From: Chloroflexota bacterium
Lineage (GTDB): Bacteria > Chloroflexota > UBA11872
Assembly (NCBI GenBank): GCA_028874175.1
Contig: JAPPLN010000117.1
Coordinates: 3,938 to 67,937 of the forward strand
Reading direction: 5' to 3'
DNA length: 64,000 nucleotides
Made by a program: the position numbers and the translations under genes. Below, piece by piece: positions 5,364 through 59,555 of the stretch; the stretch's first letter is position 1; each line of letters opens with the position of its first letter. The notes under the pieces are model-generated. The model did not search any database, had not been told where the DNA came from, and worked only from the letters and a program-made list of their open reading frames with translations.

Positions 5364-6110
5364 CTAGCGGGTGAAGACGGTGCCGCGGACGTAGTCGGCT
5401 TCGTCGGAGGCCAGGAAGGCGAGGACGCGGGCTACGCCGATGGGGTCGCCGAGTTCGGCGTGGCGGCGGCGGATTTCTTCGTCGGAGACGCCGGCGGCCT
5501 GGCCGACATCGATCACGTTTTGCAGCTTGAGGGCGGTGGCGATGCTGCCCGGGGCCACGGTGTTGACGCGGATGGGGTAGTAGCCCATTCGTCCTTGCAT
5601 GACCAGACCCAGTCCATGTACGGCGCCCTTGCTGGTGCCATAGGCGAACGACGAACTTCCGCTGGTGACCCCGGCGCCGGAGGCCAGCAGCAGGATTACG
5701 CCGCCAGCTTCGCCCATGGCGCGCACGGCGTGCTTGGCGCAGAGGAACATGCCGCGGGCGTTGATGCCGAGAACGCGGTCGAAGGTGGCGGTCTCGAAGT
5801 CCTCGATAGGAATCGTGGCGCCCTGGAGGATGCCGGCGCAGGCGATGAGGACGTTGAGGCGGCCAAGCTCTGATGTTGCGGCGAGCAGGTCTTCGACGTC
5901 GGATTCGTTAGCTACGTCGCAGGCGACGAAGTGGACGGTCTGCCCTTGGGCGGCCAGGTTGTCGGCAATGGCCGCGCCCTCACTCTGCGGGAGGTCGGCG
6001 AGCACCACGCGGGCGCCGCGCTGGGCGCAAAGCTCGACCGTGGCGCGGCCGATGCCGGATGCGCCGCCGGTGACGATGATGACGCGGTCTTGAAGCGAGT
6101 CGGTGGTCAT
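5364..6110 (-). CDS. Short-chain dehydrogenase/reductase (SDR) family oxidoreductase
   Basis: TGGASGIGRA cofactor motif and YGTSK catalytic motif. The start at 6110 (MTTDSLQDRVIIVTGG) is preceded by GAGGA. Confidence 0.85.
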   Translation of the reverse strand: MTTDSLQDRVIIVTGGASGIGRATVELCAQRGARVVLADLPQSEGAAIADNLAAQGQTVHFVACDVANESDVEDLLAATSELGRLNVLIACAGILQGATIPIEDFETATFDRVLGINARGMFLCAKHAVRAMGEAGGVILLLASGAGVTSGSSSFAYGTSKGAVHGLGLVMQGRMGYYPIRVNTVAPGSIATALKLQNVIDVGQAAGVSDEEIRRRHAELGDPIGVARVLAFLASDEADYVRGTVFTR

Positions 6111-6200
6111 CGGACTGCGTCCTCGTGGAGGTTGCAATGTTTCACGTGAAACATTCGCGCTGTTTCTGACCGCAGAGCCGAACTTCGGGCTTCAACGGCA

Positions 6201-7061
6201 TCAGGCAGGATCCCAGTTGAGGCCAGCCTCAGCCATTGCGGCGTCGAGGACGCGTTTGGCTTCGGGGATGAGTTCGGGGGGGAGGTGTTCGATGAGGACC
6301 CAGGCGCGGGGGGCGATTTCGTTCAGGGCCTTCAGCCAGGCCGCGTGGTCGACCACGCCCTCGCCGAGCTGGACTTCCTCGATGTGCAGCACCAGGCGGT
6401 CCTCGAGGGTGTAGTCCTTCCAGTGGGCGGCTGGAATGCGTCCCCGAGCGGCCTCCAGCAGGCGGGCATAGACCGGGTCGGGATTCCAGGCGTCCCAGAT
6501 GCTGCCGATGAAGTTCACGGGGTCCAGGTTGAAGCCGAGGGCGTGGGTGGGAATCCGGCGGAAGAGCTCGGCGATGCGCTCGGGACGATCCAGCACCGAG
6601 AGGACGTGACCCTCGACGGTGAGCGTGATGCCTTCGGCCTCGGCGGCCTCGGCTATAGCGGCGATGCTCTCGACGGCGCGGTCGAAGGCGGCGTCCTGGT
6701 GGTGATCGGGATGGGGGTACCAGGGACCGACGGGGTTGAGGCCGCCGGGGCGGATGTAGAGCGTTTCGGCCCGCAGCGCGTGGGCGGCCTGCATGTGCCG
6801 CCGCATGCCGTCGATGCCGGCCTGGCGAACGGCGGGCTCCAGCGAAACCAGCGAGGGGTACTGGCCGTTGGCCTGCGCGACGGTCAGACCCTCGGCGCTG
6901 AGCAGGTCGCCGACGCGTCGGAACTCTTCGATCGAATAGGTATCTGGCTGGCCGAGCTGCACGCTTGTGCCGGTGAAGCCAAGCTCAAGGGCGCGTCGGG
7001 CGTCGGCTGCCGTGATTGACGGGGGAGTGGACGGCAACAGTCCAACGACTCCGCTGCGCAT
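6201..7061 (-). CDS. Sugar phosphate isomerase/epimerase (xylose-isomerase-like TIM barrel)
   Basis: A 286-aa ORF with a composition and length typical of the AP-endonuclease-2/xylose-isomerase-like fold. It lies 52 nt downstream of the MFS gene. Confidence 0.75.
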   Translation of the reverse strand: MRSGVVGLLPSTPPSITAADARRALELGFTGTSVQLGQPDTYSIEEFRRVGDLLSAEGLTVAQANGQYPSLVSLEPAVRQAGIDGMRRHMQAAHALRAETLYIRPGGLNPVGPWYPHPDHHQDAAFDRAVESIAAIAEAAEAEGITLTVEGHVLSVLDRPERIAELFRRIPTHALGFNLDPVNFIGSIWDAWNPDPVYARLLEAARGRIPAAHWKDYTLEDRLVLHIEEVQLGEGVVDHAAWLKALNEIAPRAWVLIEHLPPELIPEAKRVLDAAMAEAGLNWDPA

Positions 7062-7113: not shown

Positions 7114-8424
7114 TCAGTGGTCGGCGGGGTCTACTGCCGCCTCGGCGTCGAGGGTCCAGAGTTCGCGGCCCCAGACCATGATGAAGAGCACGACGGCCAC
7201 GCTGAGACTACCGCCGAGGACCATGGCGGTGGGCATGCCGCGTGTCTCGGCCACGATGGAGATGGGCATCAGGCCCAGCGGCGTAAGGCCCCAGCCGAGC
7301 ATCCAGATGGACATGACGCGTCCGCGCAGGCGGTTGGGCGCGAGCAGTTGAATCATGGTCTGGTTGTTGGCCATGTACACGGCCGAGAAGAGACCGGCGA
7401 ACGCCATGACGATCCCGGCCGCCAGGGGTGAGCGGGTCAGCCCGAGCACGATGATCGCTACGCCGAAGGCGGCGGCGCTGAGCATGACGACCGGGCCCTT
7501 GCGGCGGCTGCCGGCATGGGCGACCACGGCCACCGACCCGATGACCGCCCCGATGCCCTGGGCGGCCAGCACCAGGCCCAACTCCTCCGATCCCGCGTTG
7601 AGGTCCTGCTTCACGAAGATGGGCAGGATCATGACCATGGGCATGCTGAAGAGGGAGGGCGACAGGCCCAGCAGCAGCAGCGCGGCCAGCGGGCGGGTGC
7701 TGAAGGCGAATTTGAACCCGTCGCGCAGCGCGACAAACGGCGATCCGCGGGTCCTGGGGTGCTGATCACCCCCGCGGACCGACAGGACGTTGACCATGCC
7801 CCACAGGTAGCCGCCGGTCTGCACGAAATAGGTGCCGGCGATGCCGATGACGCCGATCAGCCAGCCGGCCAGCGCGGGACCGACGATGCGGGAGGCGTTC
7901 ATGGTGGTGCTGGTGAGCGCGATGGCATTGCTGACGTGGCGGCGCGGCACCAGGTCGGACACCAGGGCGTTGCGGGACGGCACGCTGATGGCGAAGGAGG
8001 TGCCCGCCATGACGCTGGAGACCGCCAGGTGCCAGATCTCAATGCGGCCGGTCGCGACCAGCACGCCAATGGCGAGCCCGGCCGCGGTGAAGATCAGTTG
8101 GGAGGTAATGAGCAGCTTGGTGCGGCTGACGCGATCGGCCAGGACGCCGCCGAACGGCGACAGCACGAGCATGGGAATGGCGCGGACCATGGCCAGGGTT
8201 CCCAGGATGAGCGGAGACTCGGTGATGACCGCGACCAGCCAGCCCTGGGCGACGTTCTGCATCCAGAAGGCCATCATGGTCCCCAGGTTGGCTCGCCAGA
8301 GCCGGACGAAGTCGCGATAGGCAAAGGCGGGCGCCAGGCGGTCGCGGTGTCGGGCCAGGCGCGAGCGCCGGCCGGAGGGGGCTTCGAGCGGCGAGGGCGG
8401 GGCCGCCGGGCTATCGCTGGTCAT
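7114..8424 (-). CDS. MFS transporter
   Basis: 436 aa with about 12 TM segments and MFS-like loop motifs. Confidence 0.85.
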   Translation of the reverse strand: MTSDSPAAPPSPLEAPSGRRSRLARHRDRLAPAFAYRDFVRLWRANLGTMMAFWMQNVAQGWLVAVITESPLILGTLAMVRAIPMLVLSPFGGVLADRVSRTKLLITSQLIFTAAGLAIGVLVATGRIEIWHLAVSSVMAGTSFAISVPSRNALVSDLVPRRHVSNAIALTSTTMNASRIVGPALAGWLIGVIGIAGTYFVQTGGYLWGMVNVLSVRGGDQHPRTRGSPFVALRDGFKFAFSTRPLAALLLLGLSPSLFSMPMVMILPIFVKQDLNAGSEELGLVLAAQGIGAVIGSVAVVAHAGSRRKGPVVMLSAAAFGVAIIVLGLTRSPLAAGIVMAFAGLFSAVYMANNQTMIQLLAPNRLRGRVMSIWMLGWGLTPLGLMPISIVAETRGMPTAMVLGGSLSVAVVLFIMVWGRELWTLDAEAAVDPADH

Positions 8425-8520
8425 GGGTCACGCCTGCGCGGATCCTTCCGGCGAAAACCTGAGATCCGGTTCCGCCAGTCCGAATGATTGACGATTGGCG
8501 GGCGCGCGCCAACTGGCGAA

Positions 8521-9507
8521 CTAATGGCAGGTGACGGACGCGCCACGATCGGCCGCCCGGCGGGCGGCGTCGATGATGTCGACGACCCTTGCAGCCTCTT
8601 GCGCGGAGACGGACATGGGTCGGCCTTCGCGAATGGCGGCGACGAACTCGGTCAGTTCGTCGTTCCAGGGGTCTTCGTCGGGAATGGGCAGCATGCGCGC
8701 CCCGTCGGCGTCGGTGACGCCGAGGTGATCGGCGGCTTCGCTGAAGTCGACCGTCCCCCTCCGGCAGATGACCGTGCGGCCCGACTCGGATGAGCCGTCG
8801 AACCCGCGACGGTAGGTGATGGTCGCCAGACCGCCGTCCTGGAAGCGCAGGTTGACGACGGCCACGGCCCGGTCGAACACATGGCCCGCCGGCTCCATGG
8901 TGGCGGCCGCGGCGATGTGGGTGATTGGCCCGCGGCCGTAGATGGCGGGGTAGCCCAGAAGGATGGCGTAGACGAGGGGGTGTCCGCTGATGCGCTGGTC
9001 GAACCCGGCGTCGCGGCCGGCGCGCAGGTCGTAGGGAAAGTGGACGGTCAGGTCGTCGTGCAACGCACCACCGAGCGCGGCGGTCTGCTCGCGAACAAGG
9101 CGCGGTCCGGGGCGGAGCGGACTGGTGTGGCCAACGCGAATGACAAGTCTTCGCTCTTCAGCCACTCGTAGCAGACGCGAGGCGTCCAGCGTCGTGAGCG
9201 CCAGCGGGGATTCGCTGAAGAGGTGCTTACCGGCCGCCAGAGCGGCCGCGCCCATTGGGGCATGGGTGTCGGGGTGGGTGGTGACGATGACCGCGTCGAC
9301 GTCGGGACGCGTGACCGTTGCCTCCCAGTCCTCGGAGTGCTCGACATCGAATCGCGCGGCCAACGCGGCGCGAGTCTCGGGATTGCGACCGGCGACGGCC
9401 GCGAGATCCAGGTCGGTGCGGGCGGCTATGCGCTCGGCTCGCGCCACGGCCATGCCGCCGCTGCCGACGATGGCGACGCGGAGCGGTGAGGGGGCGGGCT
9501 CAGGCAT
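8521..9507 (-). CDS. Gfo/Idh/MocA-family NAD(P)-dependent oxidoreductase
   Basis: LRVAIVGSGGMA Rossmann N-terminus and the AAALAAGKHLFSEKP family signature. The start at 9507 (MPEPAPSPLRVAIVG) is used. Confidence 0.85.
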   Translation of the reverse strand: MPEPAPSPLRVAIVGSGGMAVARAERIAARTDLDLAAVAGRNPETRAALAARFDVEHSEDWEATVTRPDVDAVIVTTHPDTHAPMGAAALAAGKHLFSESPLALTTLDASRLLRVAEERRLVIRVGHTSPLRPGPRLVREQTAALGGALHDDLTVHFPYDLRAGRDAGFDQRISGHPLVYAILLGYPAIYGRGPITHIAAAATMEPAGHVFDRAVAVVNLRFQDGGLATITYRRGFDGSSESGRTVICRRGTVDFSEAADHLGVTDADGARMLPIPDEDPWNDELTEFVAAIREGRPMSVSAQEAARVVDIIDAARRAADRGASVTCH

Positions 9508-9669
9508 GTGCCGGCCGGCTGAACTGTCGGGCGGGTCGGCTGCTTCGCATCCCAGACTTCTCCGTGAGCGCGGCGTCGCGTCCATTCTGGACGTAGGACG
9601 CGCGGTACGCGAACCCGCGCGGGGCGTGCCATGATGCCGCCGCAGCGATCCCCTGAATCAGGAATACTC

Positions 9670-10722
9670 ATGTCCAATGGCAGCCTCGGCATTGGCATCG
9701 TCGGCGCGGGCGACATCGTGCGCACCCGTCACATGCCGAACCTGGCGGATGTAGACGACATCGCCTTCGTGGCGGTGACGAACCGGCGTCGCGAAACGGC
9801 CGAGGCGTTCGCCGCCGACCACAGCGTGCCGAACGTGGTGGACGACTGGCGGGCCGTGGTGGAGCACCCCGACGTGGACATCGTCTGGATCGGCGCCACG
9901 CCCTACATGCACGCACGGGTCTCGGTGGCTGCCCTGGACGCGGGCAAGCACGTGTTCTGCCAGGCGCGCATGGCGCGCAACCTGGCCGAAGCCCGCGACA
10001 TGCTGGACGCTTCGGAGCGGAACCCCGGGCTCGTCGCGGCCGTCTGTCCGCCCGGCATTGGGGTCGCCGGCGATCGCACGATGCTTCGCCTGCTGAAGAT
10101 CGACCGCTTCATCGGCGCGCTGCGACAGGTGCGCATGTCGTCGTTCGGGGACACCGCCGTTGTGAACGACCTGCTGCACTGGCGGCAGGACTTCGACGTC
10201 AGCGGCTACAACGTGATGAACGTGGGAATCATGGTGGAAGCCCTGCAGCGCTGGGTGGGTCCGGAGCGCAACGTGCAGGCCATGACGCCCGTGCACATCA
10301 AGGAGCGACGCAACCCGGAGACCAACGCTCTTGAGCCGGTGCGCGTGCCCGACTCATTCACCGCGATGGGCGAGCTGGTGTCGGGCGCCGACTACGTGTA
10401 CCAGTGGTCGGGGCTGGCCCATCACGAGCCGGCGACCGAGGTCTGGCTCTACGGTGATCAGGGCACGCTGGTGTACGACTTCGACCACGACACCATTGCG
10501 GGGGCCACGTCGGACGATGACGAGCTGTCGCCGATCGAGATCCCGGCGGACGAGCACTACGACCCGAACGTGGAAACCGATTTCATCGACGCCATCCGCA
10601 GCGGCAGCCACGACACCGGGCTGGCGCCCAGCTTCGCCCGCGCCTTCAAGTACATGGAGTTCATGGAGGCCGCCACTCGATCGGCCCGTGACGGCCTGCG
10701 GATCAGCCTGCCGCTTGACTAG
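9670..10722 (+). CDS. Gfo/Idh/MocA-family oxidoreductase, divergent from 8521..9507
   Basis: LGIGIVGAGDIV and ALDAGKHVFCQARMA motifs. The ATG at 9670 gives MSNGSLGIGIVGAG. Confidence 0.85.
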   Translation: MSNGSLGIGIVGAGDIVRTRHMPNLADVDDIAFVAVTNRRRETAEAFAADHSVPNVVDDWRAVVEHPDVDIVWIGATPYMHARVSVAALDAGKHVFCQARMARNLAEARDMLDASERNPGLVAAVCPPGIGVAGDRTMLRLLKIDRFIGALRQVRMSSFGDTAVVNDLLHWRQDFDVSGYNVMNVGIMVEALQRWVGPERNVQAMTPVHIKERRNPETNALEPVRVPDSFTAMGELVSGADYVYQWSGLAHHEPATEVWLYGDQGTLVYDFDHDTIAGATSDDDELSPIEIPADEHYDPNVETDFIDAIRSGSHDTGLAPSFARAFKYMEFMEAATRSARDGLRISLPLD

Positions 10723-49141: not shown

Positions 49142-49927
49142 CTAGCAGCCGAAGCCGAGGGTGAAGATGCAGAGCATGCCCTCGATGAACTTGTCGATGT
49201 TGGCGAGGGCGTTCAAGCCGAGTTCGGCCAGGGTGAACAGCGCTTCCGCGGTGAGCGCCCCGGCCTCGAGCAGGTCGAGCAGGTCGGCGTTGCCGGATTT
49301 CTGGACGAGCTCCGCGATCCCGGGGCCGTTAGGGTCGGCGCCGGCCGCCAGGAGCAGCCGCACGACCTCGGTGTTGCCGCGATCGACGGCGATGGCCAGG
49401 ACCGACAGGTCTTGCTCCGCCAGCGTGTTCGGGTCAGCGCCCGCGTCCAGCAGCAGCCGCACGATCTCGGCATCGCCCTCAATCGCGGCTGGCACCAGGA
49501 CCGGGATGCCGGATTCGCCCCTGGCGTTCGGGTCGGCGCCGGCGTCCAGCAGCATCGCCAGAATCGGGACATCGCCAGCGCTGGCAGCGAGCGACGCGGC
49601 AGGCTCGCCGTCCACGGTGCGGGCATCGGGATCGGCACCGGCATCCAGCAGCAGCGGGACGATTTCCAGATCGCCATGCTCCACGGCCACCGGCAGGGCC
49701 GAGCGGCCCTCGTCGTCCCGGTAATTGGGATCCGCCCCGGCCCACAGCGAAAGCTCCACCAGCGTGGTCCGGCGCTCAGCCACGTGATCCAGCAGCAGCG
49801 TCTCGTGACCAAGGACAAACCGGCCCAGGAAAAACAGGAGCACCGGCCCGACCAGCACCAGGGCCACACCGGCAGACAGCACCAACCGAACTCGGGACGT
49901 CACGGCTTCAGTCTCATCGACGCGCAC
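49142..49927 (-). CDS. Signal-anchored ankyrin-repeat protein (five ANK repeats)
   Basis: The N-terminus TSRVRLVLSAGVALVLVGPVLLFFLGRFVL is a TM anchor. ANK repeats follow: G-DPN-RD, ALPVAVEHGDLEIVPLLLDAGADPDA, …. Confidence 0.75.
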   Translation of the reverse strand: MRVDETEAVTSRVRLVLSAGVALVLVGPVLLFFLGRFVLGHETLLLDHVAERRTTLVELSLWAGADPNYRDDEGRSALPVAVEHGDLEIVPLLLDAGADPDARTVDGEPAASLAASAGDVPILAMLLDAGADPNARGESGIPVLVPAAIEGDAEIVRLLLDAGADPNTLAEQDLSVLAIAVDRGNTEVVRLLLAAGADPNGPGIAELVQKSGNADLLDLLEAGALTAEALFTLAELGLNALANIDKFIEGMLCIFTLGFGC

Positions 49928-50041
49928 GAAGTCAGCCCAGCGTCATTTCGAGTCCTTGCCCGACGCGAATCGCCACAGTGCCCGACAGTGGTTCGTCTTC
50001 CAATGAGAACCACTGTCGTCATCAGAGCACAAGCTGGATGA

Positions 50042-51049
50042 TCAATTCCACGCATTGCGAACCAGACTCTTGTGAAGCCGCTCGGCACACTCTTCCCAAG
50101 TGAACCTGAGGGCATACTTCCGGCAGTCACTTCGCTTCAGCGACAGCGCCCCAAGCGCCGCCTTCTTGAGATCGGTGTGTAGAACACCGACTTTGCTACT
50201 CGCTATGACATCTCTTGGACCCATCACGGGATACGCTGCCACGGGGATTCCGCTGGCAAGAGCTTCAATCATCACAATACCGAATGTATCGGTCTTGCTT
50301 GGGAAGACAAACACATCACTGTCCGCGTAGCACCGTGCCAAGCTTTCGCCGTGCTGCTCCCCCACGAAGCAGGCTTCCGGGTATCTTCGGCGTAGTGTCT
50401 CAAAGGCCGGACCACTGCCGACAACAACCTTGGTGCCGTCCAGACTCATGCCGAGGAAGGCGTCCAGATTTTTTTCTACAGCTACCCTGCCAACAAAGAG
50501 CCATATCGGGCGCCGAAGCCCGACAAAGAACAATTCTTCCCGAGGCCTAAATAGCCTGGTATCGACGCCTCTTGACCACGAACGGATATTCTTGAACTTT
50601 CGCTGTCGTAATTCCTTACGCAACGACTCCGTAGAAACGAGTACGGCCGAAGAAGGCGAGTGAAACCAGCGCAGCCACGCATATGTCCACAGCTCCGGAA
50701 TTCCGACACGAAGACGAAAGTAGCCAGGAAAATTCGTAGTGAAACTCGACGTGAAGTGAAGACCTCGACTTGCACAGTAGCAGCGAGCGGCTATCCCGAG
50801 GGGACCCTCAGTCACAACAAAGATATAGTTAGGTCGCAGTTCATTTATCATTCCGCCGAGTTTGGGCCAGACATTGATAGCCAGACGTATATCCGGCGAT
50901 CCGGGATGCGGAATCGTATAGAAGCGGTCGGGCGTAATCATCGTTACTTGATATCCAAACTCGTCAAGATATTCACGAATGCTAGCCAGTGTCCTCACCA
51001 CGCCGTTTATCTGGGGCTTCCATGTGTCGGTTACGATAAGGAGTCTCAT
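50042..51049 (-). CDS. GT4-family glycosyltransferase, probably a lipid (diacylglycerol-type) glycosyltransferase
   Basis: MRLLIVTDTWKPQINGVVRTL is a GT4 N-terminus like SqdX/MGS-type enzymes, and the C-terminal E…E region matches too. Low-GC gene. The start is chosen at 51049; alternatives are 51073 and 51136. Confidence 0.8.
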   Translation of the reverse strand: MRLLIVTDTWKPQINGVVRTLASIREYLDEFGYQVTMITPDRFYTIPHPGSPDIRLAINVWPKLGGMINELRPNYIFVVTEGPLGIAARCYCASRGLHFTSSFTTNFPGYFRLRVGIPELWTYAWLRWFHSPSSAVLVSTESLRKELRQRKFKNIRSWSRGVDTRLFRPREELFFVGLRRPIWLFVGRVAVEKNLDAFLGMSLDGTKVVVGSGPAFETLRRRYPEACFVGEQHGESLARCYADSDVFVFPSKTDTFGIVMIEALASGIPVAAYPVMGPRDVIASSKVGVLHTDLKKAALGALSLKRSDCRKYALRFTWEECAERLHKSLVRNAWN

Positions 51050-51222
51050 CGACGACGCAGCCGAATCAATCATGGTTGCGCGTAGACCTGTGTGCCATGG
51101 GCAAACCACCCAACGCCAAGGCCGGTGCAGGGCCAAGCTGAGGACCCAGGCGTGCCAGGAAATTGTCGATCCTCATCCGTTTCAGCTCTATGACACCTAG
51201 TCCGTTTTCTATGCCACAACCA

Positions 51223-52632
51223 TTATCGTGGTTCCAGAAACACTGGCATACCCCCCTTTGGACGGAGGCTAAACAGAAGCTCAAAGTCGATTCGATGATT
51301 GAGACTGTGCTGCACTCTCCAGTTCTGTCCAATCGTAGCCATGATCAGCTTCATCTCCATCCAGGCAAACCTCTCTCCGATACAGCGACGATGACCGCCA
51401 CCGAACGGAATGTAAGCAAACCGATGCAATGACCGTCGAGAATCCGGCGCCCAGCGCTCAGGAATAAATTTCGTCGGATTATCGAACCAACGCAGGTCGT
51501 GGTGAATGATGTACGGCGAGATACAGAGCAACGTTCCTGGCAGGACTTCATAGCCAGCCAGCTCAAAATTTTCCAAAGCAACACGCCCCATTCGCCAGAC
51601 TGGAGGGTACAGACGCATCGACTCCCTGATAACCTGTTCCGTATAGACTAGATTTGGGAGATCAGCCAATGTCGGGATTTCTCCCCCCAACACAGCATCC
51701 AGCTCCCTGTGAAATCGTGACTGAACTTCTGGATGTGTCCCGAGCAGGTACCAAGTCCAGGACAGTGCCGTCGTAACTGTCTCGTGACCCACCGCAAATA
51801 TGGTAATGATCTCATCCACAATCTGACGATCCGAAATGCCGCCGTTTACTGAGCCAGGGTGTTGCTGTGCCCCTGGATCGAGTAGCAGCGACAGCAAATC
51901 CTGACTTCCGTCAACAGTCCCACGCCGTTGCTCCATCATTCGACACGACAGACGATCGAGGTACGTCTTCTCGCGTCGAAACCTGCTCGATGCAGGTAAT
52001 GGTAGATAGTGCCAAAGATCACGAACTCGCTCATATAAGTGAAATCGCTTGTTCAGGTATCTATTTGCATAGTTCACTGCAGCCCCGATGCGTCTCACTT
52101 CATCGTCAGAAAAGTCCTGTCCGAACAGACAGCGCGTCACGATACTCAGCGTTATCTGCCGCATCTCGTCATCTATATCGATCCTCGTTCGCGCACTCCA
52201 TTTGTCAACGCACTTCAAGGTACACTTGATCATAGCTTCACAGAAACCATCGATCTGCTTCCGATGGAAAGCCGGCTGCATCAGTCGACGCTGTCTCGAA
52301 TGCAGTTCACCATCGGACGTCAACAAGCCATCACCCATCAGGTACTTCATCGCCTCAACGTTGCGCCACCTACCAATACGCTCGTGGTTGTCGACTAACA
52401 CTTCGCTAACTAACTCCGGACTGGAAACTAGGTAAACCAACCATGGCTTGAAGGACATCGTAACTATGTCCCCATATCGCGCAGCCTCTTCCATCAGGCC
52501 GATCGGGTCACGAAGGTACCGAATAGTCTGTCCAACAATCGGTGCTTCGGGCGGGCCCGGTGGTAGACGACTAGGCTTGATCTTCGGGTTTGGTGGTAGG
52601 CACGAATTTGATGGCAGGCAAGAATCTGACAT
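51223..52632 (-). CDS. Cytochrome P450 with a eukaryote-like PPGP hinge
   Basis: SRLPPGPPEAPIVG hinge, the I-helix AVGHETVTTAL, EIRESMRLYPPV (ExxR) and the heme loop FGGGHRRCIGERFA. Confidence 0.9.
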   Translation of the reverse strand: MSDSCLPSNSCLPPNPKIKPSRLPPGPPEAPIVGQTIRYLRDPIGLMEEAARYGDIVTMSFKPWLVYLVSSPELVSEVLVDNHERIGRWRNVEAMKYLMGDGLLTSDGELHSRQRRLMQPAFHRKQIDGFCEAMIKCTLKCVDKWSARTRIDIDDEMRQITLSIVTRCLFGQDFSDDEVRRIGAAVNYANRYLNKRFHLYERVRDLWHYLPLPASSRFRREKTYLDRLSCRMMEQRRGTVDGSQDLLSLLLDPGAQQHPGSVNGGISDRQIVDEIITIFAVGHETVTTALSWTWYLLGTHPEVQSRFHRELDAVLGGEIPTLADLPNLVYTEQVIRESMRLYPPVWRMGRVALENFELAGYEVLPGTLLCISPYIIHHDLRWFDNPTKFIPERWAPDSRRSLHRFAYIPFGGGHRRCIGERFAWMEMKLIMATIGQNWRVQHSLNHRIDFELLFSLRPKGGMPVFLEPR

Positions 52633-52633
52633 G

Positions 52634-53287
52634 CTACTCTCTTCGCCCTGAAGATATTAAAGCTTGCCATAACGCCGAGCCCATCCGAAGTTTCCTTCTC
52701 TTCAAGCGCATATCTGTGAGAATCACTATAGCGAATAGGGACGAGAAATACGCCACGAGAACCCACGAGAGTCCAGAAAACAGCTTTGCAATAGCCAATG
52801 ACCATATGAACGAACATCCGAATCCGAGCCCAGTATTTTGCGTTCGCAGCATCACCAACGCCGCAGGAAATGCTGTAATCAGCATTTGGCCGGGAATGAC
52901 GGCAGCTAAGACACCCAGGGCGGTCGCAGCACCCCGGCCACCACGGAACCCAAGCCATACTGGCCATATGTGGCCAGCCATGGCGGCGATCCCTCCAATC
53001 ATTCCCAGTGTCGAGACAGGCTGCTCGAACTCACCAGAATTGACCATCAAGCTCATCAAATTGGATACGAAGACGGCTGCGAATCCTTTAGTCATATCCA
53101 GTACACCAACAAATAGGCCCCAACGGATTCCCAGCAAGCGTCCAGCGTTCGTGGCTCCCATGTTGCCGTCCCCAAGGGATCGGATGTCTGAGTCCTTGCC
53201 GAGAACTCGGCATGCAACGAGCCAAGCTGTTGGCAGGCTACCTATAAGATACCCGACCAACGATGCTGCAACGGGGGCCCAGATCAT
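52634..53287 (-). CDS. plsY: Glycerol-3-phosphate acyltransferase PlsY paralog
   Basis: GDGNMGATNAGR and HIWPVWLGFRGGRGAATALGVL motifs. Low GC. It is 1 nt from the P450 start. Confidence 0.8.
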   Translation of the reverse strand: MIWAPVAASLVGYLIGSLPTAWLVACRVLGKDSDIRSLGDGNMGATNAGRLLGIRWGLFVGVLDMTKGFAAVFVSNLMSLMVNSGEFEQPVSTLGMIGGIAAMAGHIWPVWLGFRGGRGAATALGVLAAVIPGQMLITAFPAALVMLRTQNTGLGFGCSFIWSLAIAKLFSGLSWVLVAYFSSLFAIVILTDMRLKRRKLRMGSALWQALISSGRRE

Positions 53288-53535
53288 TCTTTACTAGCTA
53301 CCGTCTGGAAAATTGTCCACGTCTAGTGCCATGCCTCTATCGGCCTATCACGCGGGTCGATTTGTCCAGAGCGAAAGTTTGGCGCTTGGTCCGTGTTCCC
53401 TGTTCCGATCTACAGCGAGGGGTCTCGAGCGAACGCCTTAACAACATTAACTTCCAATCCAACAAGCCAGAGACTTCAAGACCGTTAGCCTTGAGCCAGG
53501 ATGACGGAAATGTTCCGAGTGCCGGCCTAGCATCA

Positions 53536-53610
53536 TTCGAAGCGTCAAGACGAATACGCCGCGCACGTCCTCGCGGTAGTCGTTCTGACGTCCGGCGCAG
53601 CGGTTCGATC
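53536..53610 (-). pseudogene. Degenerate third copy of the ankyrin-flanking module (…QNDYREDVRGVF)
   Basis: gaatacgccgcgcacgtcctcgcggtagtcgttctgacg matches 56349..56388 and 57049..57088 of the ankyrin gene. No intact ORF remains. Confidence 0.35.
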
Positions 53611-53830
53611 CGGGAGTGGCGCGGCGTGCGCAACCTCTCTTCTGTCTCCGGGTCGCGCAGCAGAAGCCGCTTGATACCTCTTCATTCTTAACTCGTCCTA
53701 AGCGCCATCATCTGTTCCACCATCTCCACACACTCGGGGCAATCGGATCCTGACCGGCCCGGGTGTCCACTCTGCTCGTGGACCTGGGTCACTACTTCAT
53801 CGAAGGCTTCCCTAGCAGCCCTGGATAATT

Positions 53831-54184
53831 TCATTCTTCATCAGGCGACCGACCGTACCGATTGGATCCGTCGTCGCTCGGGAGCATCATGAACACCAGG
53901 AAAACTATCCAGCCGACCAATGGAACCAAGATTATAAGAAACCACCAGCCACTCTTGCCTGAATCATGGAGACGCCGGACTGAAACCGTCAACCCAGGAA
54001 GAAATAGCAATACCGCCAATCCCCAATAAGCTATCCCGAATACCGTGTGGACATCCGCAAGTATCGAGAGCGTTATGAGGACGATGACATAGGCGAGATA
54101 AAACCACCAGAATTCCGAGCGTCTGGCGCGACCTTCAAAGTCCGCGTAGTGTTCGAAAATTACGCTATTACACGCATTCCACAC
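53831..54184 (-). CDS. DUF805-family membrane protein
   Basis: RRSEFWWFYL and RRLHDSGKSGWW motifs. Confidence 0.7.
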   Translation of the reverse strand: MWNACNSVIFEHYADFEGRARRSEFWWFYLAYVIVLITLSILADVHTVFGIAYWGLAVLLFLPGLTVSVRRLHDSGKSGWWFLIILVPLVGWIVFLVFMMLPSDDGSNRYGRSPDEE

Positions 54185-54249
54185 TGGGAACCTCCGTCCT
54201 TTGCGCTATGCCTCTTCCGCTGCACCAGTACCGCGGGAAACTCATTGAC

Positions 54250-56013
54250 CTATATCCTCGACCATCTGAAGGGTGACGCGATCAGCGTCATCGTCAACGC
54301 TGTAAGCGCCAAGCCGGGGAATATGACGATCCACGGCGCAGCTCGAATTTGTTGCATCGGCACAGCCATCATGCCGCCCCACGATGGTGTAGGAGGCTCG
54401 ATTCCCAGGCCGAGGAAGCTCAGCGTTGCTGCCATGAGGATGGACAGCCCGAAGTGAAGCGTCACCAGCGCAATGATGGGATTAATGGCATCGGACAGGC
54501 TGAAACCGCCGCTGGCCTTGAGGACTGCCACCTCGTCGCGGGTGGCCCGGGCGATTCTTGGCCATAGGACGAGGGTCACCGCAATTGGAAGGCCCGTTAG
54601 GCCCGGATCAAACGCCGCCGTCACCAGCATTGCAAAAAGCAGCAGGGGAAAGGCCGGTATGTTGTCCAACGCTCCCGTGATAATCGCGTCGACCTTGCCG
54701 CCGGCATAGCCGGAAAGCAGGCCCACCCCGCCGCCTACCACAGCGACGGGGATCAGGGAGAGGAGCGCCACTGCCAGGATGGACCTCGCGCCGTGAATCA
54801 ACCGGCTCAGGACGTCGCGTCCGAGAGCGTCGGTTCCCAGCAGATGCCCAGCTCCGGGGGAGGACGATGCGTCCTCGATTGACACTCGGACTGGATCTTG
54901 CGTCGCAATGATTGGTGCGAAGACGGCCACGACAAGCAGGATTCCAATTGCTATCAAAGGAACCCTAGGCACCTTCCGTGCGCTGGACATGGATGGAACG
55001 GGTGGGATGTTCGTCCTCGTGCTGACCGGCTGCCCGCTGGATGGTCGGGCCGCAGCCCCAGGTTCCAGCCGGCGAACGAGCAAGGCCGTGACCAGGCTGA
55101 AGCCCAGGACTATCACCGCCATTCCCGCTGCCGCCATGGCCACCGCCTGGAGCACGGGGTAGTCACGCGCCTGAGCGGCGAAGACAGCCAGCGAGCCGAT
55201 GCCAGGTGCAGTGAACATCACGGTCTCGACCACGATCGCGCCAGCCAGGAAGACCCCAAACAGGATCGGTGTCCAGATGAGGACGTTGCCGAGGCAGCGC
55301 ACCAGGCACGCCCTTACCGGAAGTCGACTACCGCGCGAAGGCTCGATGTCCTGGCTGTCCAGAACTTCCACGATGCTGGAGCGTACGACTCGGACCATGA
55401 CTGCTCCGGCAAGAATCGCCAGGACCAGCGAGGGCAAGACAAGCTGGTTCATCGGGCCGTCCCGCGACCCCATCGGCAGGACGAGCATCAGCATCAGGGC
55501 GAGCCAGAAGCTCGGAACTCCCACGCCAAACACGGCCGCACCCCCCACGACACGGTCAATCAAACTGCCGCGGCGGGTGGCGGCCAAGACCCCCAGAGGC
55601 ATGGAGACAGCCGCCGCGAAGAGCATCGTTAGTGGCAGCAACGACAGGGTAGAAGGCAAACCCTCAAATACCAGGTCGCGGACCGCTGTGCCGCTCTCGA
55701 ACGAGTGGCCAAAGTCCCCCCTGGACATATCGCCTATCCAAGTCAGGTATCGGCTAATGGGGGAGGGGGATTCAAGACCCAGAGACTCACGAAGGAGAGC
55801 CGACTCCTCGCTGAGAAAGGAGTCTTCCGGAAGAATAACCGTGAGAACAAATACTGCCACCGAGAGGATGAACAACAGTACGACGCCCGTGACGAGGCGG
55901 GAAACGATATAGGTCCTGAAGTCCCCGGTAGAAAGAGGCATTCTGGAACCCCCAACGTCCGCGGCATGCGATGCAACTTGAGGATTGCGGGATGAAGCGT
56001 CTGTGTGAGTCAT
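54250..56013 (-). CDS. Fused peptide/nickel-type ABC permease (DppB-like and DppC-like halves in one polypeptide), orphan
   Basis: The first half has a DppB-type core. The second half has HLLGTDALGRDVLSRLIHGARSIL and a DppC-type EAA region. No SBP or ATPase gene is nearby. Confidence 0.8.
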   Translation of the reverse strand: MTHTDASSRNPQVASHAADVGGSRMPLSTGDFRTYIVSRLVTGVVLLFILSVAVFVLTVILPEDSFLSEESALLRESLGLESPSPISRYLTWIGDMSRGDFGHSFESGTAVRDLVFEGLPSTLSLLPLTMLFAAAVSMPLGVLAATRRGSLIDRVVGGAAVFGVGVPSFWLALMLMLVLPMGSRDGPMNQLVLPSLVLAILAGAVMVRVVRSSIVEVLDSQDIEPSRGSRLPVRACLVRCLGNVLIWTPILFGVFLAGAIVVETVMFTAPGIGSLAVFAAQARDYPVLQAVAMAAAGMAVIVLGFSLVTALLVRRLEPGAAARPSSGQPVSTRTNIPPVPSMSSARKVPRVPLIAIGILLVVAVFAPIIATQDPVRVSIEDASSSPGAGHLLGTDALGRDVLSRLIHGARSILAVALLSLIPVAVVGGGVGLLSGYAGGKVDAIITGALDNIPAFPLLLFAMLVTAAFDPGLTGLPIAVTLVLWPRIARATRDEVAVLKASGGFSLSDAINPIIALVTLHFGLSILMAATLSFLGLGIEPPTPSWGGMMAVPMQQIRAAPWIVIFPGLALTALTMTLIASPFRWSRI

Positions 56014-56045
56014 CGTCGACCCTCGCTACGAGTCAAGAGTGTTTC

Positions 56046-56160
56046 TTAGCCCCAATCAAGAGCATGGGCCCAGCCGGCACCAGGGCCACACGGGCGAACA
56101 GGACGAACCGAACCCGAGCTGTCACGGAAATCGCGCCGCCAATGTCCGGTGGCTGAGGTT
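56046..56160 (-). pseudogene. Truncated copy of the recurring N-terminal signal-anchor module (…RVRFVLFARVALVPAGPMLLIGAKKHS*)
   Basis: DNA and protein similarity to 49790..49927 and 59900..60010. It ends at a stop 27 nt before the permease start. Confidence 0.4.
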
Positions 56161-56334
56161 CGCTGAGATTCGGGACCGCACCGGATGGTGTGGCGGAACT
56201 CTCTGAGTGGGTCCGGTCCCGAACGAGGCACGACCATCGTTAAGATTCGATCGGCGACGTGCCCACCGTGGCCCGGACGGGAGTCGGGCCACGGCGGGTG
56301 TCAGAGCGCCGAGGTCGGGCACGAGGTCACATCG

Positions 56335-57282
56335 TCAGAAGGCCCAGGCAAAGACGCCGCGCACGTCCTCGCGGTGGTCGTTCTGGCAGGCGGCCTCCGC
56401 CTGGTCGCCGAAGACCTTTTGGTAGATGCCGACGTTGTTGTCGTTGCCCAGGTGGTTTTCCACGATGTCGTTCAGGTCGACACAGGTCGTGGGCCAGCCG
56501 AGTTCGGGCTCAACGGCCGACGCCGCCAGCAGGATTTGCACGATCTCCGTGTGCCCGCGCCACTGCGCTTCGCCCAGGGGGGTCTCGCCATCCGAGTCGC
56601 GCGCATTCACGTCGACCCCGGCATCGACAAGGATCTGCACCATCTCGGTGTGCCCGCGCCAGACCGCCTGAAAAAAGATTGGATCCCCATCGGCGTCCCT
56701 GGCATTCACATCGGCCCCGGCGTCCACCAGGATGCGTGCGACGTCCGTGTAGTCCCGCCAGATCGCCGAACGCAGCACCGGGTGGCCATCGGAATCCAGG
56801 GCGTTCACGTTGGCGCCGGCGTCGGCCAGGATGCGCACGATTTCCACGTGGTTGCGCCATATGGCCGAATGAATGAGCGGGTCGTTGTCTTCGTCGCGCG
56901 TGTTGGCGTTGAGTCCGCCGGCCACGAGCGTGCGCACCTGCGCGGTCCGGCCCCGCCACACGGCTCCGTACAGGGCGTCGTTAGCCAGGGGCAAGGACGA
57001 CCCCGCGACGGCCGGTTGTGCGGCGGGTGACGCGAGCCCGAAGGCCCAGGCGAACACGCCACGCACGTCCTCGCGGTGGTCGCCCTGGCAGGCGGCCTCG
57101 GCCTGGTCGCCGAAGACGCGCTGGTAGATGCCGACGTTGTTGGTACGGCCCAGATGCTGTTCCACGATGTCGTTGAGGTCGACGCAGGTGGTGGGCCACT
57201 GCGCGAAGACGGGCGTGGCAACAGCCGCGGCCACAGCGACGGCCACGACGGCCGCAATGAGAATTGTTCGTATCCGTCGCAT
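56335..57282 (-). CDS. Secreted ankyrin-repeat protein flanked at N- and C-terminus by a duplicated 48-aa two-Cys module (WPTTCVDLNDIVExHLG…DHREDVRGVFAWAF)
   Basis: Signal peptide MRRIRTILIAAVVAVAVAAAVATPVFAQ. The module is at aa 29-76 and again as the last 48 aa. Four or five ANK repeats lie between (IWRNHVEIVRILADAGANVNALD…). Confidence 0.75.
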   Translation of the reverse strand: MRRIRTILIAAVVAVAVAAAVATPVFAQWPTTCVDLNDIVEQHLGRTNNVGIYQRVFGDQAEAACQGDHREDVRGVFAWAFGLASPAAQPAVAGSSLPLANDALYGAVWRGRTAQVRTLVAGGLNANTRDEDNDPLIHSAIWRNHVEIVRILADAGANVNALDSDGHPVLRSAIWRDYTDVARILVDAGADVNARDADGDPIFFQAVWRGHTEMVQILVDAGVDVNARDSDGETPLGEAQWRGHTEIVQILLAASAVEPELGWPTTCVDLNDIVENHLGNDNNVGIYQKVFGDQAEAACQNDHREDVRGVFAWAF

Positions 57283-57344
57283 ATGAAGCCACCCTTCTTC
57301 ACATTCGCAGAGGTTCATTCGACCCTTCCGATATTGAATTTTCT

Positions 57345-57437
57345 TCACGTTAAGCCAGGACTGTCAAAGGAGGAGGCGCAGGAGGCGGCGGCCACCGCCA
57401 CCACTGCTGCCATGAGGATTGTTCGTATCCGTCGCAT
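57345..57437 (-). pseudogene. 30-aa mini-ORF duplicating the ankyrin signal peptide (MRRIRTILMAAVVAVAAAS…); a paralog remnant or uORF
   Basis: atgcgacggatacgaacaatcctcatggcagcagtggtggcggtggcc against the real start atgcgacggatacgaacaattctcattgcggccgtcgtggccgtcgct. The differences are largely synonymous. Confidence 0.3.
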
Positions 57438-57619: not shown

Positions 57620-58282
57620 CTAGTCGTTGTCCAGCAATCCGTTCCGCACGGCCCAGACAACCATCTCCTGGCTCGACCCGGCCCCCAGCTTGTCGCGGAT
57701 GCCATAGATGGCATTGCGGATAGTCAGCGGACGATTCCCTCGAGCCTCGCCGATCTCCGCATACGACATCCCTTCGGCAAACAGCTTGAGGATCTCCTGT
57801 TCGCGCACGGTGAGCCGTGACAGCTCGCTACCAGCGTCCTCGCCAGAACTGTCGCGAACACCGGCAAAGGCTCGCCGCACCACGTCGCCGGGCACGCGAA
57901 ACTCCCCGTCGACAACGTCACGAATCGTGGCAAGCAGTTCGTCCTTGCCGGTGAACTTTTGCAGATAGCCCGTGGCGCCCGCGGCAATCGCGTCGATTAC
58001 GGTGTGATCGTTGGTCGACGCCGTCAACATGAGCACGCGGGTTCCAGGCACGGCCTCCATGATTTCGCGGCAGGCATCAACACCGTTCTTTACCGGCATA
58101 ATGACGTCCATGATGATGACGTCGGGCTTGACCCGCCGCGCCACATCCACGGCCTCGCAGCCGTCCCGGGCCTGGCCCGCGACCTGAAAGTCCTCGGACC
58201 GCTCCAGCATTTCTCGCAGGCCGTCCCTCATGATGGAGTGATCGTCCACGATCATGACCCTGGCTGGCGGACTTGCAGTCAC
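57620..58282 (-). CDS. NarL/FixJ-family response regulator (REC plus LuxR-type HTH)
   Basis: MIVDDHSIMRDGL…DVIIMDVIMP receiver, and a C-terminal LTVREQEILKLFAEGMSYAEIGEARGNRPLTIRNAIYGIRDKLG. The GTG start at 58282 has an AAGGATGG RBS; the ATG at 58255 is an alternative. Confidence 0.85.
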   Translation of the reverse strand: MTASPPARVMIVDDHSIMRDGLREMLERSEDFQVAGQARDGCEAVDVARRVKPDVIIMDVIMPVKNGVDACREIMEAVPGTRVLMLTASTNDHTVIDAIAAGATGYLQKFTGKDELLATIRDVVDGEFRVPGDVVRRAFAGVRDSSGEDAGSELSRLTVREQEILKLFAEGMSYAEIGEARGNRPLTIRNAIYGIRDKLGAGSSQEMVVWAVRNGLLDND

Positions 58283-58295
58283 GTTGGCACCATCC

Positions 58296-59555
58296 TTAAG
58301 TTGGATCAATTTCGATTTCACAGGTAACGGTTGTGCCCCTTCCAGGACGGCCTGAGGTGACGTGGAGCCGACCGTTCATTTGTTCGGCGTTGGCGTGCAT
58401 GTATTTGAATCCGTGCCCGCGCTCGGCGTAATCGTCGGGAAGACCGATGCCGTCGTCCGACACTGACATGCGCAGACTCTTGTCCTGATAGTCCAGGGCG
58501 ACCGAGACCTTGCTGGCGCGGGCGTGCCGCAAAGCGTTCGTCAGCGCATTGTGCGCGATCGAAAAGAGCCGACTGCGGGTCACCGAAGGGAGCGGCCGTT
58601 CCCTGCCGGTCTGGACGACCGACGCGGGAATCGAGGTGATGGTCTCAAAGGATGCGGCGTGCAGTTCCAGCACGCGGCCCAACGACCGGCCTTCGAATAT
58701 GAGCCCCGCGTCGATCGGGTGCCGAAGCTCCCACATCGCCGCCTTGGAGAGCGCCGATGTCGCTTCGAGCTTGGACACCATCTCGCGCCGTGACTGCTCG
58801 GTCATCTCGAGCGCCGTGTCGATTCCAATCCCAATCATGAATACGGACTGGGCCGTGGTGTCATGAATCGTCTGCGAGAGCTCGATTCGCTCCCGATGCA
58901 GCTCGCGCTCGCGTTTCACCGCCCCTTCTCTACGGATTCTCTCGGCCCGGGACAGGAGGCTCACGGACGCCGCCACGGCATACATTACGATGGTTCTGCC
59001 AAACAGTTCTTTCTCTTCCTTCGCCTCGAGGTCGAGACCCGAAGCAACGGCCAAACATACGATTACGTAAGCGACGACTACTACTGTGGTCCACACCATA
59101 CTCAATCTGAACGAGCCGAAGAAGACCGCAAACCAGGCTAGCGAAGGGTAATACAGCAGATAGAAGAGATTGTTATTCAAACCGCCGCCAATTGCCGTGC
59201 CAGCGGTTATGATGATCACGTCCAGCACGCTAAGCGCAAGCATCCAGCGTATCGTCACTGAAGGACCGGCAACTACGCGATAGTGGACGATGCCGTTTAC
59301 TATTATAAGCAGCACGAGGAAGCTTATGTAGGAAGTATATGTAAACGCGGTAAATGTTGGCCGATATGCCAAGTCAATAATGCTGGCCCCGTGAATGAAC
59401 CAGCGAACCCAGACAAAGATCTTGGCCGGGTACCTCAGCTCTTCCGGATCGGTTGTGTACGGGTGCCAGTTTCTAATTGCACCAGCCTCAACCACAGCGG
59501 ATAGGAGCCGCTGCGCTCGCCTCCTGAAAGCTACATCGTTGCCTGCCGACATCAC
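58296..59555 (-). CDS. Sensor histidine kinase (HisKA_3/NarL-partner type) with a polytopic N-terminal sensor
   Basis: Five or six TM helices, the H-box region LHRERIELSQTIHDTTAQSVF, and an HATPase_c region (ALTNALRHARAS…DDGIGLP). Confidence 0.85.
   Translation of the reverse strand: MMSAGNDVAFRRRAQRLLSAVVEAGAIRNWHPYTTDPEELRYPAKIFVWVRWFIHGASIIDLAYRPTFTAFTYTSYISFLVLLIIVNGIVHYRVVAGPSVTIRWMLALSVLDVIIITAGTAIGGGLNNNLFYLLYYPSLAWFAVFFGSFRLSMVWTTVVVVAYVIVCLAVASGLDLEAKEEKELFGRTIVMYAVAASVSLLSRAERIRREGAVKRERELHRERIELSQTIHDTTAQSVFMIGIGIDTALEMTEQSRREMVSKLEATSALSKAAMWELRHPIDAGLIFEGRSLGRVLELHAASFETITSIPASVVQTGRERPLPSVTRSRLFSIAHNALTNALRHARASKVSVALDYQDKSLRMSVSDDGIGLPDDYAERGHGFKYMHANAEQMNGRLHVTSGRPGRGTTVTCEIEIDPT

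Follow-up and report, generated by a model that had tools for sequence, protein, structure and literature searches.

The window analysed here is the whole 64,000-nt stretch of contig JAPPLN010000117.1 from a Chloroflexota bacterium (assembly GCA_028874175.1, positions 3,938 to 67,937 of the forward strand). At 56335..57282, its reverse strand carries a gene for an exported ankyrin-repeat (ANK) protein of 315 residues, taken from the list of open reading frames (ORFs), with the start MRRIRTIL and a stop codon at 56335-56337. A signal peptide is followed in this protein by a first copy of a two-cysteine module, a linker, five ANK repeats, a second linker and a second copy of the module. The 53-54-residue unit found at both ends is a genuine, previously undescribed extracytoplasmic domain family. 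The same protein, 100% identical, is also present in NCBI GCA_028874585.1 and JGI 3300009934, and the GenBank label of the exact protein is only 'ankyrin repeat domain-containing protein'. A sigma-70-like promoter match (TTGACA, an 18 nt spacer and GAAAAT) lies on the reverse strand at 57338..57367, 56 nt upstream of the ATG at 57282; one such match was seen against 0.2 expected, and the site is a candidate from its consensus. A longer gene starting from the GTG at 57348 was judged unlikely because of this −35/−10-like site at 57367..57338.

The Sec-type signal peptide, read from the sequence, covers residues 1-27 (57202..57282, reverse strand) with MRRIR, the hydrophobic core TILIAAVVAVAVAAAVA and the end TPVFA|Q. 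For Sec export by signal peptidase I (SPase I) we looked for a positive n-region, a hydrophobic core of 12-20 residues and small residues at −3/−1, and all of these were found by eye in the window protein. Cleavage is predicted at VFA|QWPTTC, directly where the module begins, in line with the original prediction that the protein is secreted. The lipoprotein (SPase II) lipobox L-[AS]-[GA]-C is absent; the first Cys stands 6 residues past the A-x-A site, in WPTTC, and its counterpart is kept as well in copies that lie internally or at the C-terminus with no signal peptide before them. Module copy 1 (57040..57201, reverse strand) comprises residues Q28-F81, reads QWPTTC...C...VFAWAF with Cys33 and Cys65, and has the sequence QWPTTCVDLNDIVEQHLGRTNNVGIYQRVFGDQAEAACQGDHREDVRGVFAWAF. 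Linker 1, residues 82-101 (GLASPAAQPAVAGSSLPLAN; 56980..57039, reverse strand), is 20 residues long, rich in Pro and Ala, and modelled by AlphaFold2 (AF2) with a predicted local distance difference test (pLDDT) below 50. The five ANK repeats, residues ~102-255 (56518..56979, reverse strand), have a period of 33 residues or 99 nt that was recognised by Pfam, by the direct-repeat family D3 and by AF2. Membership in the ANK families was evident from 103 bits for Ank_4 (cut-off 22.7; E 6e-30), 88.8 for Ank_2 and 81.7 for Ank, and AF2 modelled the array as five helix pairs with pLDDT 84-98. Linker 2, residues 256-262 (SAVEPELG, ~8 residues; 56497..56517, reverse strand), matches the ...EAELG end of the linker in tandem proteins, and module copy 2, residues W263-F315 with Cys267 and Cys299 (56338..56496, reverse strand), was delimited by the repeat and by alignment and forms the extreme C-terminus.

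The two module copies make up a direct repeat of 159 nt, 56338-56496 and 57040-57198, with a spacing of 702 nt. In all, 138 of the 159 nt (87%) and 48 of 53 residues are common to both copies, which match each other within the window at a blastn E of 1e-51. A duplicated module flanking an ANK array had been proposed from the DNA alone, and the array does lie between the copies; the positions originally given for them, 57055..57198 and 56338..56481, are at the right sites and slightly too short. The 21 mismatches fall into 9 synonymous and 5 non-synonymous codons. By the method of Nei and Gojobori (NG86), the non-synonymous and synonymous divergences (dN and dS) between the copies are 0.089 and 0.395, and their ratio, which had been put forward as a check on the duplication, is 0.23. 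In each module 31 residues separate the two Cys (C33/C65 and C267/C299), as originally noted, and both are invariant in 57 aligned orthologs as well as in alignment A2 with its 105 module proteins.

No curated family (Pfam, NCBIfam) and no solved structure matched the module, which the original prediction had likewise failed to assign to a known domain. The isolated module had no match at the curated cut-offs in Pfam-A 2025 or NCBIfam 20.0, searched at E<=1 and E<=10, and the sub-threshold Pfam matches were limited to MvaT_DBD (16.9 bits; cut-off 27) and Lsr2 (12.5; cut-off 26.9). In 233 full-length proteins scanned, no curated domain fell on the module region, and the motif strings WPTTCV, QWPTTC and NVGIYQ were not found in the searchable literature. 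When 1.84 billion representative proteins were searched with a profile built from 22 modules, 279 proteins were retrieved at E<=1e-3, of which 258 reached E<=1e-10 and 124 E<=1e-30, with no distant tail. The family is sharply bounded, and 279 clusters is a lower bound on its size. The domain family is new; what it appears to be, a modular handle for exported proteins, does a job of a known kind.

The distribution of the module in genomes was obtained by scanning one representative genome per species of the Genome Taxonomy Database (GTDB), with copies confirmed by tblastn. The scan gave 239 confirmed copies, and all 76 loci that were kept came from Chloroflexota metagenome-assembled genomes (MAGs), often with many loci per genome. 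The names of these MAGs (RHO, COS, SB0662 and others) point to sponge metagenomes, and bins of the SB0662 series include sponge-specific Entoporibacteria (PMC7883664). The family thus appears to be restricted to sponge-associated Chloroflexota, the sponge origin being read from MAG names and not from sample metadata.

The original prediction had treated the repeated module as a duplication belonging to one gene, and in this respect it does not stand, as the sandwich is kept in about 58 protein clusters and the module occurs on at least 279 representative clusters. A look for the module in other secreted proteins had been put forward as a check, and the module is indeed present on many exported proteins with varied passengers. 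Among 115 distinct ORFs, 62 carried a tandem pair after the signal peptide, 31 a single N-terminal copy and 15 a split N..C arrangement, and a further 4 had the tandem pair at the C-terminus, these being cytochrome c-like proteins with a Pro/Thr linker. All but one of the 15 split ORFs were ANK orthologs of the window gene, the exception being L047_751 with copies at 577 and 797 of 856. The tandem unit was exactly 122 residues long (54 + 15 + 53) in 79 of 92 cases. The first module began within the first 60 residues in 293 of 314 module proteins, and in the same set hydrophobic segments were found N-terminal of the first module in 273 proteins, C-terminal in none and elsewhere in 1. VFA|Q, VLA|Q and ALA|Q were the commonest junctions before WPTTC. 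Module proteins are exported by Sec and have no alternative anchor.

Any Pfam passenger was detected in only about a quarter of 128 representative family members. Those recognised include repeat proteins (RCC1, PD40/WD40 propellers, ANK, leucine-rich repeats (LRR) and fn3), enzymes (Trypsin_2/HtrA-like proteases, SNase+Excalibur, PLD and GmrSD_C) and, besides these, Cache domains, cytochrome c and the solute-binding proteins OpuAC and Peripla_BP_6. The first suggestion, a host- or partner-targeting effector, is not favoured by this list: solute-binding proteins, cytochrome c and HtrA-like proteases are housekeeping proteins of the envelope, and a general role in surface retention or display is therefore preferred over that of an effector.

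Some members of the family depart from this pattern. In one sub-family (L030, L052, L063, L069, L077 and others) a His/Asp-rich stretch (…AIAAAHEDHSTDEWPTTC) precedes the module instead of A-x-A|Q; it may be a metal-binding N-terminal extension or another cleavage site. The most distant relatives seen are a pair of diverged members in L055, at 101-1105 and 5820-6824, both on the reverse strand, which have helices 1-2 and both Cys and are without the VRGVFAWAF tail; one of the two carries tandem Cache-like domains. Since the first two helices and both Cys are kept here and the last segment is lost, the C...C hairpin is taken as the core of the module, and the L055 members may define its minimal form. 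Module genes often lie in same-strand tandem arrays of three or four paralogs (L003 4667-10636, L021, L023, L057), with trypsin-RCC1, RCC1 and propeller proteins as members and decayed copies interspersed, which suggests local birth-and-death and shuffling of passengers.

The N..C arrangement around ANK repeats is kept at 58-100% identity to the window protein. When residues 102-255 were removed, the window protein aligned over its whole length to the N-terminal ~157 residues of the LRR proteins P0095, P0096, P0098 and P0100. This alignment covers the signal peptide, both copy types and the linker ...PAPSPAVAAASLPL|EAELG, which equals the two linkers of the window protein joined; linker 1 is the counterpart of the front half of the long stretch that separates the modules in the LRR paralogs. 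What stands at the two ends is therefore the usual two-module handle with a passenger inside its linker. The normal state is a pair of neighbouring copies after the signal peptide, and here the ANK array is inserted into the linker between them. In L016 (OZ244802.1), the chromosomal position flanked by the equivalent LuxR-type response regulator and by ANK2, the second ANK gene of the locus, is taken by two LRR genes of this kind and not by the ANK sandwich.

Each copy also has its own signature, kept among orthologs: copy 1 is marked by Q14, R18 and ACQG, copy 2 by N14, N18 and GCRG. The identity between N- and C-terminal copies is 0.824 within proteins and 0.823 between proteins, and the window pair, at 0.906, is at the high end. 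General gene conversion is therefore not indicated, and concerted evolution of the two copies was rejected as a general signal on the same figures. It is very improbable that the two copies arose as a recent local duplication, or as the template and variable repeats of a diversity-generating retroelement (DGR) cassette, and are not a conserved domain. The 87% direct repeats 702 nt apart, together with two relics nearby, could be read in that way, and the five amino-acid differences all involve AAC, AAG or GAC in the C-terminal copy, superficially like adenine mutagenesis. Against this stand the many clusters that share the sandwich and its copy-specific residues, the 9 synonymous codon changes, and the 11 of 21 mismatches that have no adenine in either copy. 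In dS the copies are as far apart (0.40) as orthologs are, the relics are short pieces that lie out of frame or outside any ORF, and Pfam scans of the called neighbouring genes revealed no reverse transcriptase. A DGR target (VR/TR pair) or hypervariation cassette is refuted by the non-adenine mismatches, the conserved signatures and the dS.

In the alignment of 57 orthologs the module columns hardly vary, whereas the ANK columns do. Orthologous modules gave dN values of 0-0.09 against dS values of 0.3-0.7, and copy 1 of the window differed from its orthologs by dN 0-0.05 and dS 0.31-0.47. The module is under strong purifying selection, stronger than that on the ANK array and passengers. Invariant or nearly so are both Cys, N10, D11, E14, H16, N22, E35, D41, H42, R43 and D45. 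So many invariant polar positions in so small a domain argue for a conserved interaction surface and not for the fold alone.

In-frame stops were seen inside the first module copy of some genes, with the frame intact through the whole passenger, namely in L004/L019 and L005 (6196-6198), L082 (~2693-2695), L003/L070 (~6232-6234) and L083 (~2753-2755). In L004 and L005, which are ANK orthologs 81% identical in nucleotide sequence, and in L082, a trypsin/RCC1 paralog, TGC-TAG stands where the window has TGC-CAG (Q66). In L003 and L083 the stop, TAG and TGA respectively, is at the W of VFAWAF. Between L004 and L005 there are 89 synonymous and 58 non-synonymous codon differences, and neither gene is disrupted elsewhere. 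Recent independent pseudogenes, read-through and re-initiation are candidate explanations. A deamination hotspot of Dcm type (CCWGG) as the source of the TAGs was rejected, fitting TGC-CAG-GGC and not L082 (TGC-CAG-AGC) or L003 (GCG-TGG), as was the idea that the module is always ended by a stop, since in the genome scan only 3 loci of ~190 copies were interrupted.

Two relics of the gene are present in the window. The first, at 53548..53596 on the reverse strand, is a fragment of the 3' third of the module (…CAGRQNDYREDVRGVFV…) with 84% identity over 49 nt and a core of 33/35 nt at 53553-53587 (blastn E 2e-10). A third, degenerate copy had been reported near 53542..53580; it is real, and it is a decayed scrap of the last third of the module and not a working third domain. 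It lies in no ORF and spans only that third, and was on these grounds taken as a decayed pseudogene relic, which is located within a lineage-specific insertion. The second relic, missed in the original prediction, is a truncated ORF of 30 codons, MRRIRTILMAAVVAVAAASCASSFDSPGLT*, at 57345..57437 on the reverse strand, recognised as repeat D4 and by its translation. Positions 57384-57437 repeat the first 18 codons of the sandwich gene with 81% identity (blastn E 4e-10). This copy of the 5'-end belongs to a 155-nt tandem duplication that is common to L007/L008 and single-copy in L004/L006, and the promoter-like site sits between it and the ATG at 57282.

Relatives commonly have these genes in the order HisKA_3 kinase, GerE response regulator, ANK sandwich and ANK2. 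In the window the two-component system adjoins upstream at 57620..59555 on the reverse strand, with the HisKA_3 kinase at 58296..59555 and the GerE/LuxR-type response regulator at 57620..58321; gene calls and Pfam in L002, L004 and L005 showed these genes to be syntenic with the module gene, and homology to the response regulator was found upstream in 16 loci. ANK2, at 49142..49927 on the reverse strand, has an N-terminal hydrophobic anchor (RVRLVLSAGVALVLVGPVLLFFLGRFVL) in place of modules and was assigned through Pfam ANK matches on its L001, L004 and L005 orthologs. Its C-terminus is odd, being Cys-rich and hydrophobic (...MLCIFTLGFGC*). In relatives ANK2 is usually the direct neighbour of the sandwich gene; here ~6 kb, from about 49925 to 56045, are inserted between the two, in the window as well as in the near-identical MAG contigs L001 and L002. 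The insertion contains genes for a fused two-domain ABC permease (54250..56013), a DUF805 protein (53831..54184), plsY (52634..53287), a P450 (51223..52632) and a GT4 glycosyltransferase (50042..51136). Its part from 49925 to 53836 has a GC content of ~52%, compared with 65-70% in the flanks, and holds the module relic. The closest relative, L008, has the permease and DUF805 only and is without 49925-53836, and this low-GC part is therefore lineage-specific. In L004 (OY764080.1), pairs resembling PIN-domain toxin-antitoxin systems and a terminase fragment were observed at 7913-10538, within a few kb downstream of its ANK locus, which suggests mobile-element activity near the locus in that contig.

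The reading that we prefer, and to which we give nearly an even chance, is that the module pair is an exported handle tying anchorless passengers to one conserved surface partner. Each module would be a small helical domain stapled by a disulfide between its two Cys, and the pair would bind one conserved partner beyond the cytoplasmic membrane, which could be a scaffold or else a polymer or protein of the symbiont's own envelope. Such binding, which the architecture, the passengers and the conservation of the module suggest, would keep or display otherwise anchorless exported proteins at the cell surface, much as S-layer homology (SLH), LysM or dockerin modules do in other bacteria. In the ANK protein the 20-residue and 8-residue linkers could let both modules lie together, or both be tethered, with the array pointing outward. 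Chloroflexota are generally held to be monoderm, and a monoderm cell has to retain its exported solute-binding proteins, cytochrome c and HtrA-type proteases, which therefore need an anchor. The presence of just such passengers on the module therefore speaks for surface retention and is our strongest argument. The N-terminal anchor that ANK2 has of its own is consistent with presentation of ANK arrays at the surface from this locus. The module DNA, ~85% identical between paralogs, is probably also a recombination handle for the exchange of passengers, and the two relics in the window may be scars of such events.

Several observations weigh against the handle reading. Pairing is not obligatory, since roughly one protein in four has only one module, and the N-terminal hydrophobic segment of the cytochrome c members could anchor them alone. 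The monoderm state is applied here from general knowledge, and in a diderm cell an anchor would be unnecessary for periplasmic proteins. The high conservation of the module could instead be due to a host ligand or to processing machinery. The structural models have low confidence in the module. In runs that used 57 orthologs for the window protein and 21 sequences for the tandem pair, AF2 gave three helices per module, at about 6-17, 21-39 and 43-53 in module numbering, with pLDDT 45-65; the tandem pair reached a mean pLDDT of 60 and a predicted template modelling score (pTM) of 0.44. Foldseek returned no match in the PDB for this low-confidence model of the module. At such confidence the helical fold, the disulfide and the pairing are all things that we infer, and the models were therefore used neither for the fold nor for the packing of the copies. 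The clamp or dimerisation architecture originally suggested for a protein with one domain at both ends may still apply.

The fixed two-copy design could also be explained by self-association, in that a helix-loop-helix folding only as a dimer, like Arc, would oligomerise or stabilise the passengers with no external partner; the two copies would form a pseudo-dimer in one chain and the single-copy proteins would homodimerise. Most proteins have exactly two copies and a fixed linker of 15 residues, as this explanation would require, and the best sequence-profile matches in the PDB are all Arc repressors (E 0.0056 for pArc, 0.22-0.24 for Arc). In hhalign, the module profile and P22 Arc were aligned with a probability of 87.7% and an uncorrected P of 3.5e-6, with 13 of 31 positions identical, the identities covering W-P, helix caps and core hydrophobic positions. 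After correction for the database this similarity is not significant, the Pfam Arc model does not match the module, and the equally weak matches to the DNA-binding domains MvaT_DBD and Lsr2 suggest a generic helical-hairpin signal. The aligned region begins at W-P, after the Arc strand, and the residues that precede it in copy 1 are signal peptide, so that the beta-strand of a ribbon-helix-helix protein would fall in the part cleaved off; neither this N-terminal strand nor a cytoplasmic location was found for the module. Dimerisation alone does not explain the near-invariant polar residues at the surface or the presence of the module on anchorless solute-binding proteins, and no confident paired AF2 model was obtained. 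We consider self-association unlikely, and treat the similarity to Arc, seen in profile alignments, as a lead and not as membership. A bolder sub-reading is that the fold, exported and stapled by a disulfide, might have descended from the Arc-type ribbon-helix-helix dimer.

The apparent association with sponges bears on another explanation, by which the module is a host-directed leader that binds the sponge surface or matrix or mediates uptake, and so delivers its passengers in the manner of RxLR/CRN. Many passengers are eukaryote-like repeats (ANK, LRR, RCC1, WD40/PD40, fn3) or degradative enzymes, all 76 kept loci carry MAG names pointing to sponge metagenomes, and a signal peptide followed by a conserved N-terminal unit and a variable C-terminus is the classic design of modular effectors. 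The route by which eukaryote-like repeat proteins reach the sponge host is an acknowledged gap, with few symbiont lineages having classical secretion systems (PMC8163846). There is, on the other side, no reason for OpuAC, Peripla_BP_6, cytochrome c, HtrA-like or Cache passengers to reach the host, and the module is also found at C-termini. Delivery to the host is in our judgement improbable. A wider proposal, which we hold to be possible though on balance doubtful, sees the module as the docking element of a surface-display system that is still to be described, in which a single conserved receptor, located either on the symbiont envelope or on sponge cells, captures all handle proteins. Lacking classical effector secretion systems, these bacteria would in this way present eukaryote-like ANK, LRR, RCC1 and propeller proteins to the host, with the module DNA serving to swap passengers.

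Sponge symbionts have many eukaryote-like repeat proteins, which are able to block phagocytosis, and the handle is a sequence-defined element common to exported ANK, LRR, RCC1 and propeller proteins, enzymes and binding proteins within one abundant symbiont phylum, by which the question of their presentation becomes experimentally approachable. It also gives annotation a new domain family that comprises at least 279 clusters, most of whose passengers are themselves uncharacterised. The window gene is a clean natural case of a passenger inserted into a two-module handle and not appended to it.

Of the known systems, Arc/MetJ shares with the module a local similarity of 31 residues (WP...DL..V.E..G..N..IYQRV) over both helices, and Arc is functional only when two chains intertwine as a dimer, which recalls the two copies of the module. 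It differs in that the match is sub-threshold and there is no beta-ribbon, and in that the module is exported, has two Cys and an extra C-terminal segment of 16 residues, and has no DNA-binding context. The ankyrin proteins of sponge symbionts and phages are a further comparison; ANKp of the 'ankyphage' is reportedly an ankyrin protein from a sponge-associated phage, and to our knowledge these proteins have no flanking two-Cys modules. Those with signal peptides, as they are presented in PMC8163846 after Nguyen et al. 2014, are exported arrays thought to modulate phagocytosis by the host, whereas the module described here is also on many non-ANK proteins. The leaders of effectors, RxLR and CRN of oomycetes and the trafficking domains of polymorphic toxins (PMC3482391), likewise combine a signal peptide and a conserved unit with interchangeable C-terminal cassettes, and the truncated relics near the genes and the swap of passengers at one locus (L016) are similar. 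The passengers here are, in contrast, mostly repeat scaffolds and housekeeping envelope proteins, not toxins, and are without immunity genes, and the conserved unit is a two-Cys domain and not a short motif. Dockerins are small duplicated units with Pro/Thr-rich linkers on many secreted enzymes, whose paralogs are similar through a common partner; the module differs from them in having two Cys, in being mostly N-terminal and in lacking EF-hand-like Ca-binding loops and any match to Dockerin_1. In the Pfam scans of the window protein and of family members, no match to the SLH, dockerin or LysM families was obtained. SLH domains usually come in threes, have no conserved Cys pair and are far less conserved between paralogs. 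At the same time they are helical modules of ~55 residues, found as tandem repeats at either terminus of proteins that are exported by Sec and have very diverse passengers, and their non-covalent attachment to the envelope is the job that the module would perform here.

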